Below are positions 32,519 through 44,894 of a stretch of DNA of 64,000 bases, in pieces (the first letter of the stretch is position 1; the number at the start of each line of letters is the position of its first letter). This DNA is from Escherichia coli (GTDB lineage Bacteria; Pseudomonadota; Gammaproteobacteria; Enterobacterales; Enterobacteriaceae): NCBI RefSeq assembly GCF_046105845.1, contig NZ_CP151004.1. One strand, 5' to 3'. The notes under the pieces are model-generated. The model saw nothing but the letters and a program-made list of their open reading frames with translations, ran no database searches and was not told the DNA's origin. A program made the position numbers and the translations under genes.

Positions 32519-33415
32519 ATGGCCAAAGAAAGGGCATTAACGCTGGAAGCACTACGGGTTATGGATGCGATCGATCGCCGGGGCAGTTTTGCGGCGGCGG
32601 CGGATGAGCTGGGACGCGTGCCTTCCGCACTTAGCTACACCATGCAAAAACTGGAAGAAGAGCTGGATGTGGTGCTGTTTGACCGCTCGGGCCATCGCAC
32701 CAAATTCACCAATGTCGGGAGGATGTTGCTGGAGCGAGGGCGCGTTTTGCTGGAAGCCGCAGATAAACTGACTACCGATGCGGAAGCTCTCGCGCGCGGT
32801 TGGGAAACGCATCTCACCATTGTGACCGAAGCGCTGGTACCGACACCTGCCTTTTTCCCGTTAATTGACAAACTGGCGGCAAAAGCGAATACCCAACTGG
32901 CAATCATCACCGAAGTGCTGGCGGGGGCATGGGAACGGCTGGAGCAGGGGCGGGCGGATATTGTTATCGCGCCGGATATGCATTTTCGTTCCTCGTCGGA
33001 GATCAACTCGCGCAAACTCTATACCTTAATGAACGTCTACGTTGCCGCGCCTGATCACCCGATTCATCAGGAGCCGGAACCGTTATCTGAAGTGACGCGC
33101 GTGAAATATCGTGGAATTGCGGTGGCGGATACCGCTCGTGAGCGCCCGGTATTGACCGTACAGCTACTGGACAAACAGCCGCGTTTAACGGTGAGCACGA
33201 TTGAAGATAAACGTCAGGCATTACTGGCGGGGCTTGGCGTGGCGACGATGCCGTATCCGATGGTCGAAAAAGATATCGCGGAAGGGCGGTTGCGTGTCGT
33301 CAGCCCAGAATCGACTAGCGAGATCGATATTATTATGGCCTGGCGTCGTGACAGTATGGGGGAAGCGAAATCCTGGTGTCTGCGGGAAATTCCCAAACTT
33401 TTTAGCGGAAAATAA
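32519..33415 (+). CDS. yhaJ: LysR-family transcriptional regulator
   Basis: 298-aa ORF; divergent from yhaK. Confidence 0.85.
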   Translation: MAKERALTLEALRVMDAIDRRGSFAAAADELGRVPSALSYTMQKLEEELDVVLFDRSGHRTKFTNVGRMLLERGRVLLEAADKLTTDAEALARGWETHLTIVTEALVPTPAFFPLIDKLAAKANTQLAIITEVLAGAWERLEQGRADIVIAPDMHFRSSSEINSRKLYTLMNVYVAAPDHPIHQEPEPLSEVTRVKYRGIAVADTARERPVLTVQLLDKQPRLTVSTIEDKRQALLAGLGVATMPYPMVEKDIAEGRLRVVSPESTSEIDIIMAWRRDSMGEAKSWCLREIPKLFSGK

Positions 33416-33432
33416 TATTTGTTATTGTTAAT

Positions 33433-33461
33433 AAAAAGGGGCGAAATATCGCCCCAATTTT
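33433..33461. terminator. bidirectional rho-independent terminator between convergent yhaJ and yhaI
   Basis: AAAAAGGGGCGAAATATCGCCCCAATTTT, with A-run and T-run flanking the stem. Confidence 0.75.
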
Positions 33462-33465
33462 AATA

Positions 33466-33822
33466 TTAATTTGAACCAAACTTCGGATCGTTTCCGTAAC
33501 GATTGCTGCCAGAATTGCCCTCTAAACAGGCAAATACAAACAGAACTAACCAGCCAATGATCGGTACCAGATAGAGAAGCGCCCACGCACCTGAACGGTC
33601 AGTATCATGCAGACGACGAACGCACAGAGCAATGACCGGAATGATTGTTGCTGCCAGGTAAATGAGAGAAAGGAACGGAAACTCTAAACCTAAAATCAAT
33701 TGAATGACATTGATAATAGCGCCGACGATGGCGTTAATCAGAGTAAACATCCAGTACTCTTTACGACGTGCGCGACCAGAGAAACCAACATAATTTTTTA
33801 ATACGGATAAATACCACTGCAT
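33466..33822 (-). CDS. yhaI: DUF805 inner-membrane protein
   Basis: 118-aa ORF; paralog of the adjacent yhaH (shared LKNYVGF.GRARRKEYWMF motif). Confidence 0.8.
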   Translation of the reverse strand: MQWYLSVLKNYVGFSGRARRKEYWMFTLINAIVGAIINVIQLILGLEFPFLSLIYLAATIIPVIALCVRRLHDTDRSGAWALLYLVPIIGWLVLFVFACLEGNSGSNRYGNDPKFGSN

Positions 33823-34063
33823 AAAAACATCCCTTTAATTAAAAGTGACGAAAGTTTATTCCGGGTATTGTGTAAATGCTATTCGTATCTTTCTTTTTCG
33901 GATGTTATAAAGGTTTTGATATTTAAGATAAATACATGGTTATTTTTTATATGTAATTTATATAACGACATTGAAATATTTTAAATAAACATTAGTAAAT
34001 TATTCATTCATCAACATAATGATAAAAGCCGGATGAGTCAGACATCCGGCGAGCAGATTTGTT

Positions 34064-34429
34064 TTAAGCTTCCAGTTTTGGATCTGGTCCAAAGCGGTTT
34101 TCGCCTGGCGTACCCGCCTGGCAGTTAAAGACGATGATAATAAGCCAGCCGATAAACGGGATTAAGAATAGCAGTGCCCACCACGCCGAGCGGTCGGTGT
34201 CGTGCAGGCGGCGGAACTGAACCGCCCACCACGGTAAAAACACCAGAATACCGTAGATTGTTGTCAGGATGCCTTCGCCACCAGCGCGTTGCCAGCCTAA
34301 CATTTTATCCAGCAGCCCCAGCACGAACGTAAAGATGATGTTGACCAGAATAAACATCCAGTACTCTTTGCGCCGCGCACGACCCCGGAAACCGACATAA
34401 TTTTTTAGTACTTTCAGATACCAGTCCAT
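34064..34429 (-). CDS. yhaH: DUF805 inner-membrane protein
   Basis: ORF track 34064..34450; likely start MDWYLKVLKNYVGF at 34429. Confidence 0.8.
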   Translation of the reverse strand: MDWYLKVLKNYVGFRGRARRKEYWMFILVNIIFTFVLGLLDKMLGWQRAGGEGILTTIYGILVFLPWWAVQFRRLHDTDRSAWWALLFLIPFIGWLIIIVFNCQAGTPGENRFGPDPKLEA

Positions 34430-34554
34430 TTTTGCCTCAATTTTGCTCAATCACTTGTTTTTAAAGCAGCAAATTAAGAATAGACGTGAATGAAATGGCA
34501 GTAAATATTATCGCGATGAATTAATAAGGCACTGTGAAGGATAAGGGCAAGCGC

Positions 34555-34660
34555 AAAATCGCCAGATGCGCTACGCTTATCTGGCCTACGCGGCATTGTA
34601 ACATATTGAATATAAACGTTTTGTAGGTTGGAGAAGACGTTCACGCCGCATCCGACATAA
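34555..34660. repeat. pair of REP-type palindromes (BIME-like)
   Basis: GCCAGATGCGCTACGCTTATCTGGCCTACG and GACGTTCACGCCGCATCCGACA. Confidence 0.65.
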
Positions 34661-34710
34661 ATAACACGCACTTAGCTAATAATCAGAGGCACCTCGTAAG
34701 GTGCCTTTTT

Positions 34711-35697
34711 TTAACCGAAGCGAACATCTCGTCCATGCGGTTCATCGAGATCCTGCCACGGACCAATTGAAATAATCCCCGTAGGGTTGATGGTCTTATG
34801 GCTGCGGAAGTAGTGATTACGGATGTGATCGAAATTGACAGTTTCGGCAATCCCCGGCATCTGGTAGATATCGCGCAGGAAACCATACAGATTCAGGTAA
34901 TCGCTGATGCGGTGCTTATCACACTTGAAGTGGGTCACATACACTGGATCAAAACGGACCAGCGTGGTCCACAGGCGAATATCGGCTTCGGTTAGCTGAT
35001 TGCCGGTCAGGTAACGATGCTGGCCTAAAATCTGCTCCAGTCGCGCCAGCGATTCAAACACTTTCGCCACCGCCTCGTCGTAAGCTTGCTGGCTGGTGGC
35101 AAAACCAGCTTTATACACGCCGTTGTTAACGGTGTCATAAATCCAGCCGTTAAGTTCGTCAATTTTCGTTTGCAGGGCTGGTGGGTAGTAATCACCCGCT
35201 TTCGCGCCCAGCGCATCAAACGCGGTATTGAACATGCGGATGATTTCCGCTGATTCGTTGCTGACGATGGTGTGGTTCTTTTTGTCCCACAGTACGGGAA
35301 CAGTAACTCGTCCGCTGTAGTGTGGATCGGCGTGGAGATAAAGCTGATACAGAAATTCATGTTGATAGAGCGTATCTCCGGTTGCTCCCGGAAAACTGTC
35401 ATCAAAGGTCCAGCCGTTTTCCAGCATCAGCGGGTTCACTACGGAAACGGAAATAAACGGTTCCAGTCCTTTGAGTTTACGCATGATCAGCGTGCGGTGC
35501 GCCCACGGGCAGGCGAGTGAAACATAGAGATGATAACGATCTTTCTCTGCGGTAAAACCGCCTATGCCAGTGGGGCCAGGAGTGCCATCGGCAGTGAGCC
35601 AGTTACGAAATGCGGAAGCTGAACGTTGAAATTTACCGCCGGTGGATTTGGTATCGTACCAGGTGTCATGCCAGACGCCGTCAATCAGTTGACCCAT
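34711..35697 (-). CDS. yqjG: glutathionyl-hydroquinone reductase (Xi-class GST)
   Basis: ORF track 34711..35718; likely start MGQLIDGVWHDTWYDT at 35697, preceded by GGAGGAG. Confidence 0.88.
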   Translation of the reverse strand: MGQLIDGVWHDTWYDTKSTGGKFQRSASAFRNWLTADGTPGPTGIGGFTAEKDRYHLYVSLACPWAHRTLIMRKLKGLEPFISVSVVNPLMLENGWTFDDSFPGATGDTLYQHEFLYQLYLHADPHYSGRVTVPVLWDKKNHTIVSNESAEIIRMFNTAFDALGAKAGDYYPPALQTKIDELNGWIYDTVNNGVYKAGFATSQQAYDEAVAKVFESLARLEQILGQHRYLTGNQLTEADIRLWTTLVRFDPVYVTHFKCDKHRISDYLNLYGFLRDIYQMPGIAETVNFDHIRNHYFRSHKTINPTGIISIGPWQDLDEPHGRDVRFG

Positions 35698-35716
35698 TTT
35701 TCTCTCCTCCAATAGC

Positions 35717-35748
35717 AAAAACGAGGAGCTTCCTCCTCGTTTTTTATC
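35717..35748 (-). terminator. rho-independent terminator after yqjF
   Basis: AAAAACGAGGAGCTTCCTCCTCGTTTTTT symmetric hairpin. Confidence 0.7.
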
Positions 35749-35766
35749 GTTAAGTATAGCGCGTGC

Positions 35767-36159
35767 TTACCACTTTTTATTCAGCAGGCGGTCGATGCTA
35801 TACGCGCCCGGACCGGTAATTGCCAGTAGCAGGAATCCGCCAGAAATTGTCAGGTTTTTCATGAACATCAGCGAGTTGACGCCTTCAGCAAAGTTGCTGT
35901 GAAATAAAAATGCCGTCAGCAGCGTAAAGCCCGCAGTAAACAGGGCTGTGGTGCGAGTCAGGAAACCAAACAGGATTGCCAGACCACCACCAAACTCAAG
36001 CAGAATCACCAGCGGCAGCATAAAACCCGGGACGCCCATCGCTTCCATATATTGTTGGGTACCAGAGTAAGCGGTAATTTTTCCCCAGCCGGCCGTAATG
36101 AACAGAATCGGCATTAAAATGCGCGCTACCAGTACACCAACATCTTCTAATTTTTTCAT
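35767..36159 (-). CDS. yqjF: DoxX-family membrane protein
   Basis: ORF track 35767..36249; likely start MKKLEDVGVLVARIL at 36159 (130 aa). Confidence 0.8.
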   Translation of the reverse strand: MKKLEDVGVLVARILMPILFITAGWGKITAYSGTQQYMEAMGVPGFMLPLVILLEFGGGLAILFGFLTRTTALFTAGFTLLTAFLFHSNFAEGVNSLMFMKNLTISGGFLLLAITGPGAYSIDRLLNKKW

Positions 36160-36344
36160 CATACTCTCCACTGCGCCACTCAGGCTGCTGATTGTTTTTT
36201 TGTGCAAGGGCGCGGTATTAGCGTCGTTGCTGTCGATGGAGAGAATCATAAACGTGGTGAATGATGATTGTTAGCAAGGAAAACTGTCAAAAATCTTCAA
36301 AAAATTTGAGGGATAAGGCCGGAATGGCTCCGGCCAGAGGGAAG

Positions 36345-36644
36345 TTAACCGCGAAGCTGTTGCTGCTTGAGGGTCGTTTTAACCAGACGCCAGGCGCTCC
36401 ATACGCCAAAACCGCGTCTGGCCCAGCGGACCAGCATATTAGGATGGCGAATCGTCCAGATCGCCATCACGCTACTGCCAACCAGCGCCCAGGAGCGCAG
36501 ACTTAGCAGCATATTCCAGCGACGATCGTAAGCGCCTGTTGCCTCCAGCCATTCACGACGACTGGCGGAAAGATCCAGCCGTTGTTGCTGGATCTGGCTC
36601 AGCAGTTGCGCCTTACGTCGTTCACGTTCGACTTTACTGCTCAC
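36345..36644 (-). CDS. yqjK: small uncharacterised protein YqjK
   Basis: ORF track 36345..36746; the 99-aa product likely initiates at a GTG (V in ...SPVSSKVERERRK), from memory of the K-12 product. Confidence 0.6.
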   Translation of the reverse strand: MSSKVERERRKAQLLSQIQQQRLDLSASRREWLEATGAYDRRWNMLLSLRSWALVGSSVMAIWTIRHPNMLVRWARRGFGVWSAWRLVKTTLKQQQLRG

Positions 36645-37038
36645 GGGACTCCTCCTCGAGCAGCTGCCGATCGTTTGCCAGCTCATGGCGTGTATGGCGC
36701 AGCAGGGTGGATTTACGCGATTTACGTAACGTCCAGATACCGCCAATCAGTGCCAGTAGCAGCAACACCACGGTGGTGGCAATCATCGCATTCAGGCGAT
36801 ATTGCGGATCAACCGCCCAAATAATCAGCACCATCAGGCTCATAAGACCAAATGCAGCGAAAAGCATCGTCAGGCCCAGCATCAGTAAAAGTTGAAAGAG
36901 ATTCGCTTTTTCCTCTTCCAGCTCCACCACCGCCAGCCGCAGACGTGTTTCCACCATTTCAACCATGATGGAAACAATTCGCTGCCCGATGCCCAGAACG
37001 CTTTTACCGGGCCCTTGCGCGTGATGAGTGTCCGCCAT
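36634..37038 (-). CDS. yqjE: DUF1469 inner-membrane protein
   Basis: ORF track 36634..37107; likely start MADTHHAQGPGKS at 37038 (134 aa). Confidence 0.75.
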   Translation of the reverse strand: MADTHHAQGPGKSVLGIGQRIVSIMVEMVETRLRLAVVELEEEKANLFQLLLMLGLTMLFAAFGLMSLMVLIIWAVDPQYRLNAMIATTVVLLLLALIGGIWTLRKSRKSTLLRHTRHELANDRQLLEEESREQ

Positions 37039-43406: not shown

Positions 43407-44894
43407 ATGCAATACATCAAGATCCATGCGCTGGATAACGTCGCGGTTGCTTTAGCAGATTTGGCGGAAGGCACAGAAGTCAGTGTCGATAACCAGACTG
43501 TTACGCTGCGCCAGGATGTTGCTCGTGGACATAAATTTGCGTTAACGGATATCGCAAAAGGGGCCAACGTCATCAAATATGGCCTGCCGATTGGTTATGC
43601 ATTGGCGGATATTGCGGCGGGGGAACACGTTCACGCCCACAATACGCGCACGAATCTGAGCGATCTGGATCAGTATCGCTATCAACCTGATTTTCAGGAT
43701 CTGCCTGCGCAAGCGGCAGATCGTGAAGTGCAGATCTATCGTCGCGCTAACGGCGATGTCGGGGTGCGTAATGAGCTGTGGATCCTGCCAACCGTGGGCT
43801 GTGTTAACGGCATCGCGCGGCAGATCCAGAACCGTTTCCTGAAAGAGACCAACAACGCCGAAGGTACTGACGGCGTGTTCCTCTTCAGCCACACCTACGG
43901 CTGCTCACAGCTGGGCGACGATCACATCAATACGCGGACTATGCTGCAAAACATGGTGCGCCACCCGAACGCGGGCGCAGTGCTGGTGATTGGTCTGGGC
44001 TGCGAAAACAACCAGGTTGCCGCATTCCGTGAAACGCTGGGCGATATCGATCCTGAACGCGTTCATTTCATGATCTGCCAACAGCAGGATGATGAGATCG
44101 AGGCTGGGATCGAGCATCTGCATCAGCTGTATAACGTGATGCGCAACGATAAGCGCGAGCCAGGCAAACTCAGCGAACTGAAGTTTGGTCTGGAGTGCGG
44201 TGGTTCTGACGGTCTTTCTGGTATTACTGCTAACCCGATGCTGGGGCGTTTCTCTGACTACGTGATTGCTAACGGCGGTACTACCGTACTGACCGAAGTG
44301 CCGGAGATGTTTGGCGCAGAGCAGTTGCTGATGGACCATTGCCGCGACGAAGCAACGTTTGAAAAACTGGTCACCATGGTCAATGACTTCAAGCAGTACT
44401 TTATTGCCCATGACCAGCCGATCTATGAAAACCCATCGCCGGGGAACAAAGCGGGCGGTATCACCACGCTGGAAGACAAATCACTTGGCTGTACCCAGAA
44501 AGCGGGTTCCAGCGTCGTGGTTGACGTGCTGCGTTACGGCGAGCGTCTGAAAACGCCGGGGCTGAACTTGTTAAGTGCGCCGGGTAACGATGCCGTAGCG
44601 ACCAGCGCCCTGGCGGGTGCGGGCTGCCATATGGTGCTGTTCAGTACTGGTCGTGGCACGCCGTATGGTGGATTTGTGCCGACGGTGAAAATCGCCACCA
44701 ACAGTGAACTGGCGGCGAAGAAAAAACACTGGATCGACTTTGACGCGGGTCAGCTGATCCACGGTAAAGCGATGCCGCAGTTGCTGGAAGAATTTATCGA
44801 CACCATCGTTGAGTTTGCCAATGGTAAACAAACCTGCAACGAGCGTAACGACTTCCGCGAACTGGCGATCTTCAAAAGCGGCGTAACGCTATAA
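43407..44894 (+). CDS. uxaA: altronate dehydratase
   Basis: 495-aa ORF; paralog of garD. Confidence 0.92.
   Translation: MQYIKIHALDNVAVALADLAEGTEVSVDNQTVTLRQDVARGHKFALTDIAKGANVIKYGLPIGYALADIAAGEHVHAHNTRTNLSDLDQYRYQPDFQDLPAQAADREVQIYRRANGDVGVRNELWILPTVGCVNGIARQIQNRFLKETNNAEGTDGVFLFSHTYGCSQLGDDHINTRTMLQNMVRHPNAGAVLVIGLGCENNQVAAFRETLGDIDPERVHFMICQQQDDEIEAGIEHLHQLYNVMRNDKREPGKLSELKFGLECGGSDGLSGITANPMLGRFSDYVIANGGTTVLTEVPEMFGAEQLLMDHCRDEATFEKLVTMVNDFKQYFIAHDQPIYENPSPGNKAGGITTLEDKSLGCTQKAGSSVVVDVLRYGERLKTPGLNLLSAPGNDAVATSALAGAGCHMVLFSTGRGTPYGGFVPTVKIATNSELAAKKKHWIDFDAGQLIHGKAMPQLLEEFIDTIVEFANGKQTCNERNDFRELAIFKSGVTL

Follow-up and report, generated by a model that had tools for sequence, protein, structure and literature searches.

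The hairpin past yqjG in Escherichia coli: an ordinary gene-end element with a lineage-specific wrong-strand look

Why should a hairpin that directly follows a minus-strand gene look like a terminator for the plus strand? This question is raised by the 3′ end of yqjG, the gene for a glutathionyl-hydroquinone reductase, in a 64-kb window of Escherichia coli contig NZ_CP151004.1 (the window is the whole stretch of DNA that was analysed, and all positions are counted from its first letter). A first-pass annotation of the window proposed two solutions: that the element ends an unannotated plus-strand transcript arising in the spacer between yhaH and yqjG, or that it acts in the reverse orientation for yqjG. 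We consider it probable that the hairpin is the 3′-end hairpin of the yqjG unit, which it parts from the independently promoted yhaH, and that the plus-strand T-run is an E. coli-specific A-run seen in the mirror. The strain is an E. coli but not K-12; over the stretch, KE55 is the closest complete genome (99.3%) and K-12-like strains reach 92%.

The element at the end of yqjG is made up of the following features.

34711..35697, minus strand: yqjG, glutathionyl-hydroquinone reductase (coding sequence)
34711..34713, minus strand: yqjG stop codon TAA, 4 nt from the first stem base
34706..34712, plus strand: T7, the complement of a minus-strand A7 that consists of the stop-codon AA and five more A's (read from the sequence)
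34687..34706, either strand: hairpin with an 8-bp GC-rich stem AGGCACCT/AGGTGCCT and a 4-nt loop (sequence and fold)
34676..34686, minus strand: yqjG-sense tail CUGAUUAUUAG, a weak U-tract, which reads CUGAUAAUUAG in K-12 and most E. coli

Read on the plus strand, positions 34687-34712 run AGGCACCT-CGTA-AGGTGCCT and then TTTTTT, and the final two positions (34711-34712) complement the AA of the yqjG stop. The loop is UACG in yqjG-sense RNA and CGUA in plus-strand RNA. Folding gives the 20-nt hairpin at 34687-34706 an energy of -12.6 kcal/mol on both strands (z = -4.6), with equally good folds in none of 200 dinucleotide shuffles. The plus-strand stem can be extended to 10 bp (34685-34708, -14.5 kcal/mol), an extension that consumes two U's of the tract, and because of this the consensus terminator scanner lists the hairpin on the minus strand only. 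The plus-strand reading nonetheless has the features of an intrinsic terminator, namely a GC-rich stem of 8-10 bp and a directly adjoining U-tract (T7), and tail scores for the window hairpin are 2.37 in the sense direction vs 5.01 in the antisense direction. Judged by its sequence, the element looks like a bidirectional-type terminator with the antisense reading as the better of the two. Sequence and fold thus agree with the first-pass annotation that a strong hairpin with a plus-strand T-run abuts the yqjG stop, and its phrase 'canonical intrinsic terminator on the plus strand' suits the bare sequence, which appears to be a by-product of the A-tract beside the stop codon.

We read the DNA that follows the yqjG stop codon in 81 genomes, comprising 80 Enterobacteriaceae loci that encode YqjG and the window itself. 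A hairpin of -6 kcal/mol or better that starts within 30 nt of the stop is present in 73 of the 81, usually beginning 3-8 nt past the stop. In 72 of the genomes, the best hairpin folds more stably than at least 95 of 100 dinucleotide shuffles of its 60-nt region, and the median energy is -14.5 kcal/mol vs -3.4 kcal/mol for shuffles. The position and fold persist through extensive sequence change, with 51 distinct 5′-arm sequences among the orthologous hairpins. Within a 16-sequence subfamily kept in register by MAFFT (to which one row, 1424KP, contributes only partly), pair counting finds 94.9% of cells paired and compensatory changes in 4 of the 8 pairs; none of 500 shuffles reaches the covariation score of this subfamily, and sliding the partner columns lowers pairing to 39-56%. 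RNAalifold predicted no pairs on a MAFFT alignment of 49 orthologous regions, because the alignment misplaced the 3′ arms of the various stem families relative to one another.

The orthologous hairpins also have a direction. In 59 genomes the U-richer of the two tails is the yqjG-sense one, against 13 with a U-richer antisense tail, and loops of the UNCG type number 10 in the yqjG-sense reading and 2 in the antisense reading. A strong sense tail (score of at least 3.5) occurs in 18 relatives, and textbook terminators, such as GGGCATCAATAGATGCCC-TTTTTTAATT, are found in Enterobacter, Lelliottia, Yokenella, and Pluralibacter. Salmonella and Citrobacter have TTATTAATT, with the tail UUAUUAAUU. 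Evidence from position, structure, covariation, and tails thus identifies the conserved object as a yqjG 3′-end hairpin on the minus strand, in line with the proposal that the element serves yqjG in reverse orientation. The hairpin is present in genera that lack the pair of repetitive extragenic palindromic (REP) sequences found in the Escherichia spacer; it is older than the REP insertion and is no REP itself.

The T-run has a much narrower distribution. The antisense tail score of the window (5.01) is the highest among the 81 genomes, where the median is 1.94; scores of at least 3.5 are confined to Escherichia and one Phytobacter, and scores of at least 5 to E. coli. A U-tract on the plus strand is accordingly not conserved across the orthologous loci of these 81 genomes. 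In sister Escherichia the stretch between stop and stem reads TAGACAAAGG, TAAACAAAGG, or TAGTAAAAGG, and in E. albertii it reads TAACCACAGG. A single C-to-A change converts TAAACAAAGG into the E. coli form TAAAAAAAGG. Of 11 E. coli sequences read, 10 have A7 and KE55 has A6, while the downstream tail is CUGAUAAUUAG in K-12, Nissle, O157:H7, and others and CUGAUUAUUAG in the window lineage. On these comparisons, the T-run is an A-run beside the stop codon seen from the other strand, and E. coli alone has acquired it.

Within E. coli, the element is nearly fixed. An identical 49-mer covering the last codons, the stop, the A-run, the hairpin, and CTGAT is present in 4814 of 5417 complete genomes by blastn. 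A megablast with a 70-nt query matched just 387 genomes, probably due to masking of the A-run and to the lineage-variable tail.

Two strains differ at this gene end in other respects. The O157:H7 strain ATCC 35150 has an F-to-L change at the penultimate yqjG codon. E. coli O158:H23 CFIAFB20140388 contains an IS200C copy (locus 790-1510) inserted exactly between the yqjG stop (GGTTAAA|) and |AAAAAAAGGCACC, which parts yqjG from the A-run and the 3′ hairpin.

A scan of the 3′ ends of 62 long open reading frames (ORFs) within the 64-kb window places the T-run in context. Four gene ends have an antisense tail score of at least 5: the hairpin shared by yhaJ and yhaI, the ends of yqjG and yqjF, and the end of the gene at 43407-44894. 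A high antisense score is expected for the convergent yhaJ/yhaI pair; the other three ends each have a co-directional downstream gene, and the hairpin after yqjF (35719-35742) is symmetric, with A6 on one side and U5 on the other. A wrong-strand T-run is therefore not unusual in this window, and what is slightly unusual at yqjG is that, of its two tails, the sense tail is the weaker. A-tracts are present at many terminators, which can then work on both strands with unequal efficiency (PMC4824070).

The hairpin between yqjF and yqjG has features of its own. On the minus strand, 35719-35742 reads AAAAAACGAGGAG-GAAG-CUCCUCG-UUUUU, lies 21 nt before the yqjG AUG, and is flanked by a run on either side. 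In contrast to the yqjG 3′ hairpin, its very sequence is conserved in nearly all Enterobacteriaceae loci (AAAGCGAGGAG-NNNN-CTCCTCGCTTTTGCTATCTGAAGGAG). Its arms resemble a Shine-Dalgarno and an anti-Shine-Dalgarno sequence, the real Shine-Dalgarno sequence lies ~12 nt downstream, and a conserved TATACT follows the yqjF stop. This hairpin may be a leader terminator or a translational switch for yqjG.

The argument that the yqjG hairpin parts two units draws on the surrounding genes and on the yqjG-yhaH spacer, for which RefSeq provides no annotation.

32519-33415, plus strand: yhaJ, 1.27 kb upstream of the hairpin on that strand
33438..33455, both strands: shared hairpin terminator of the convergent yhaJ (plus) and yhaI (minus) (scanner and fold)
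33466-33822, minus strand: yhaI (annotation and comparison)
34064..34429, minus strand: yhaH (DUF805), the next downstream gene, co-directional with yqjG (annotation and comparison)
34477..34505, minus strand: candidate yhaH promoter TTTACT-17-TATTCT, predicted start ~34472 (cross-genus conservation)
34561..34589, plus strand: REP copy GCCAGATGCGCTACGCTTATCTGGCCTAC, inverted relative to the first arm (consensus-half search)
34623..34656, minus strand: REP copy GTCGGATGCGGCGTGAACGTCTTCTCCAACCTAC, the first arm of the REP pair, or bacterial interspersed mosaic element (BIME) (consensus-half search; weak naRNA4 match)
next to yqjG, minus strand: yqjF (annotation and comparison)

The reporter fusion made for Salmonella yhaH starts at -43 from the AUG (PMC5137417), a position that we take as the start of the 5′ untranslated region. 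This start agrees with the candidate yhaH promoter, and yqjG and yhaH therefore appear to be separate units with the hairpin between them. Both genes do lie on the minus strand (34064-34429 and 34711-35697), as the first-pass annotation had it. Its further remark that no plus-strand gene lies upstream is right locally and fails farther out, where the plus strand carries yhaJ (32519-33415) at a distance of 1.27 kb.

That the spacer contains REP sequences was borne out by the location of two copies. A strict full-length REP pattern gave no match, and the copies were located by searching for the two halves of the consensus; both have at most one mismatch per half, and they form an inverted pair. 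In the 80-locus comparison this pair is confined to Escherichia, where it comes immediately after the sense tail. The linker between the copies (34590-34622) contains ATTCAATATGTTA, which resembles the integration host factor (IHF) consensus, WATCAANNNNTTR; should it be an IHF site, the pair would be a candidate BIME of the BIME-1/RIP (repetitive IHF-binding palindrome) type.

Taken together, these features suggest the following history for the element. In most Enterobacteriaceae the hairpin would be an intrinsic terminator in the yqjG sense, consisting of a stem-loop and a U-rich tail. In the Escherichia lineage, a REP pair would have been inserted just downstream and the sense U-tract would have decayed to CUGAU(U/A)AUUAG. 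In E. coli itself, a substitution in the already A-rich stretch between stop and stem would then have created A7. The idea that terminators switch type through changes in the U content downstream of the stem has been published, and the yqjG orthologues look like such a type-switching series.

In present-day E. coli, termination at the hairpin in the yqjG sense is probably weak and inefficient, because the tail is U-poor and because a ribosome terminating at the stop, 4 nt before the stem, can keep the stem from folding. With its upstream stop codon shifted from a distance of 28 bp to one of 5 bp, the lambda tR2 terminator drops in efficiency from ~90% to <10% through ribosome occlusion (PMC4824070). 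The hairpin would then be largely a pause site and a barrier that shields the 3′ end from exonucleases, and termination would be finished downstream by the REP pair and Rho. Downstream of the REPs, at 34460-34560, the sense RNA is C-rich and G-poor (GC skew of +0.36 to +0.43 on the plus strand), a composition compatible with Rho loading, if thin evidence for it. A plus-strand polymerase that arrived at the element would be released at ~34712-34716, at the yqjG stop. Most likely, the element is competent in both directions and its antisense competence is a by-product instead of a selected function.

Several observations weigh against this interpretation. The sense tail CUGAUUAUUAG, with 5 U in 10, is poor and passes the consensus terminator scanner only marginally; given such tails in E. 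coli (score of 2.37; 4-5 U in 10), the word 'terminator' may overstate the role of the hairpin there. No 3′ end is listed at the hairpin on either strand in the Term-seq tables searched, so that termination in the yqjG sense is putative for E. coli. In O157:H7, a 1-nt deletion leaves a 6-bp stem, and a perfect hairpin followed by U7 is kept on the plus strand; in strain ATCC 35150 (locus ~600-625) the lost base is a G of the 5′ arm, which reads AAAAAAAGCACCT.... Finally, the A7 and the hairpin are near-invariant beside a spacer that is 87.5% identical to K-12, a pattern that some constraint on the A-run itself could produce. The 27 nt that comprise the stop, the A-run, and the hairpin are 100% identical in this strain and K-12, and it is the rest of the spacer that stands at 87.5%. 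Most of this contrast can be credited to the hairpin, and a 7-nt run is too short to test alone.

These points bear on several other explanations. A possible but rather doubtful one takes the weakness of the sense tail further and holds that the E. coli hairpin has ceased to be a yqjG-sense terminator, serving only as a barrier to 3′-5′ exonucleases on transcripts that Rho terminates past the REP pair. The U-poor tail, the C-rich and G-poor RNA at 34460-34560 with its skew of +0.36 to +0.43, and a stem placed 4 nt past the stop, a distance at which a model terminator is almost fully repressed, are all in keeping with such a role. The excess of C over G, however, comes from ~20 G+C bases that overlap the yhaH promoter, and supplementary file 2 of Adams 2021 contains no Rho-termination region between yqjG and yhaH. 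The stem-loops described in such a role (PMC6061677) lack an upstream A-tract, whereas the yqjG hairpin has A7.

A second explanation, which we regard as unlikely, assigns a selected function to the T-run: hairpin and U7 would form an antisense insulator that halts plus-strand polymerases at the yqjG stop and so spares yqjG antisense transcription and head-on collisions. Possible sources of such polymerases are read-through from yhaJ, spurious promoters within the AT-rich yhaI-yhaH region or the REP spacer, and divergent firing of the yhaH promoter. The canonical plus-strand architecture (a stem of -12.6 to -14.5 kcal/mol and then U7), near-fixation of the element in E. coli, retention of hairpin and U7 in O157:H7 despite the stem deletion, and antisense tail scores of 3.5-5.0 throughout the Escherichia clade against the median of 1.94 speak for it. 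Plus-strand transcription also passes the yhaJ terminator in K-12. Supplementary file 2 of Adams 2021 lists a Rho-termination region at K-12 3253150 (minus strand), antisense to yhaI; this position maps to 33583 in the window, where the K-12 minus strand corresponds to the plus strand. Plus-strand polymerases therefore get past the yhaJ/yhaI hairpin and are then stopped ~1.1 kb before the yqjG hairpin, and this Rho-terminated yhaJ read-through is the only documented plus-strand transcription nearby.

The same Rho site, 1.1 kb upstream, argues against the insulator, as little read-through should arrive at yqjG. For the K-12 interval 3251900-3252299, the Adams 2021 tables give 3′ ends on neither strand, nor do they have a yqjG or yhaH entry, an absence that may reflect low expression. 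No other genus with the same gene order has the T-run, a single C-to-A change from the sister-clade sequence suffices to produce it, KE55 has A6, and A-tracts upstream of terminators are common in the window. A related proposal is that the element has flipped its polarity, with the hairpin kept, the sense U-tract lost, and a perfect antisense U-tract gained and fixed, so that its main job would now be to halt antisense polymerases right at the yqjG stop codon while the REP pair and Rho attend to the sense direction. We give this proposal little credence.

The least probable explanation, and one that we think very improbable, is the other proposal of the first-pass annotation, in which the hairpin ends a discrete unannotated plus-strand small RNA (sRNA) that arises in the yhaH-yqjG spacer and contains the REP pair; a hairpin-U7 end would suit Hfq. 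Full-length plus-strand matches to two Rfam families of Hfq-binding RNAs speak for it, but they are weak (isrD, 21.5 bits against a gathering threshold of 37; STnc250, 17.7 bits against 42), consist mostly of the hairpin, and have an E-value of 0.41 even for a 3.1-kb search. The Rfam candidates isrD, naRNA4, and STnc250 were all rejected as sub-threshold, their likeness being to the terminator hairpin and the REPs. A consensus promoter scan of 33000-37000 yielded no plus-strand promoter, and a laxer scan yielded only candidates with 8 of 12 matching positions, such as the weak promoter-like TAGACG-19-TATTAT at 34481-34511 (plus strand). A 30-aa ORF (34534-34626), the sole one on the plus strand of the spacer, overlies a REP, and the spacer itself is a lineage-specific, variable REP insertion that is 87.5% identical to K-12. 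Published tables were similarly devoid of candidates: gene-name searches of RIL-seq-based sRNA predictions and Hfq CLASH tables gave neither yqjG nor yhaH, searches by gene name and coordinate gave no such entry in the transcription start site (TSS) tables of SMRT-Cappable-seq and Kim 2012, and the Cappable-seq TSS tables have no spacer entry (coordinate-prefix search only). These negatives are weak, as they come from text searches and concern genes that are poorly expressed in standard media. With promoter candidates of this quality, no 3′ end, TSS, or Hfq-associated RNA listed in the tables searched, and a T-run specific to E. coli, the proposal of a plus-strand transcript from the REP spacer has no support. 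Full-text searches found no literature on the operon structure of yqjG, either with yhaH or for yhaJ with yqjF. A -1 frameshift at A AAA AAG followed by the hairpin was also considered and rejected, because the slippery heptamer lies 3′ of the in-frame TAA and ribosomes terminate earlier.

Other features of the neighbourhood were noted along the way. The 5′ untranslated region of yhaH (34436-34470, minus strand) contains the palindrome-like TTGCTGCTTTAAAAACAAGTGATTGAGCAA, which has the cross-genus form GATCGCTTTAAAAACAAGTGATTGA. As RNA, TTGCTGCTTTAAAAACAAGTGATTGAGCAA folds no better than shuffles; its role could be that of an operator or of the region with which SdsR is reported to pair in Salmonella yhaH. 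The yhaI-yhaH spacer (33823-34063) is extremely AT-rich and has weak plus-strand promoter-like sites at 33916, 33971, and 33992, which makes it a possible source of spurious antisense transcription through yhaH. Identity to K-12 is 99.5% for yhaH, 99.2% for the yhaI-yhaH spacer, 98.0% for yhaJ, and 84.6% for yhaI, a pattern that points to a divergent or recombined yhaI allele. KE55 carries an IS1 between yhaJ and yhaI (locus 1425-2122), and the window has no IS1 there.

The hairpin past yqjG is thus best described as the ordinary hairpin of a gene end, with a wrong-strand look that came about as a lineage-specific by-product. This matters little beyond annotation, where it gives the unannotated yqjG-yhaH boundary a defined 3′-end hairpin and illustrates that a 'wrong-strand terminator' can be nothing more than a gene's own terminator viewed from its A-tract side. 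The locus also offers a small, clean case of terminator turnover, from a U6 tail in Enterobacter through UUAUUAAUU in Salmonella and Citrobacter to an antisense U7 without a sense U-tract in E. coli. If the antisense run proved functional, the element would be a modest example of antisense insulation between co-directional genes.

A comparison with known systems helps to place the element. The Salmonella Hfq-binding sRNAs isrD (RF01388) and STnc250 (RF01409) share with it a full-length plus-strand alignment that ends in a hairpin and U6; the matches nevertheless fall below gathering, the likeness is essentially that of the hairpin, and the sRNAs come from a different locus, the spacer locus not being conserved in Salmonella. 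The two inverted copies in the spacer match the REP consensus, as do REP pairs or BIMEs elsewhere in the window, whereas the yqjG hairpin itself is no REP. Bidirectional terminators defined by SEnd-seq (Ju et al. 2019; collision model in bioRxiv 10.1101/2022.10.23.513370) resemble it in that the hairpin could pause polymerases from either side. That class, however, is defined at convergent pairs transcribed from both sides, and yqjG and yhaH, both on the minus strand with no known plus-strand unit, are not a convergent gene pair.

Other parallels are provided by the protective stem-loops of Rho-terminated transcripts described by Dar and Sorek 2018 (PMC6061677), which likewise consist of a stable stem-loop past a gene with a low-U tail, REPs nearby, and a C-over-G region downstream. 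The yqjG hairpin has the U-poor tail of this class but departs from it in having A7 where those stem-loops have no upstream A-tract, and no Rho region is listed here. The hairpin also resembles A-tract intrinsic terminators that are capable of working in both directions, which share the GC-rich stem-loop directly past the stop and an A-run on one side that forms the U-tract of the other strand. At yqjG, by contrast, the own-strand U-tract is degenerate, the better terminator faces away from the gene, and the flanking genes are co-directional instead of convergent. By analogy, the yqjG element would appear to work as an A-tract, bidirectional-capable intrinsic terminator.

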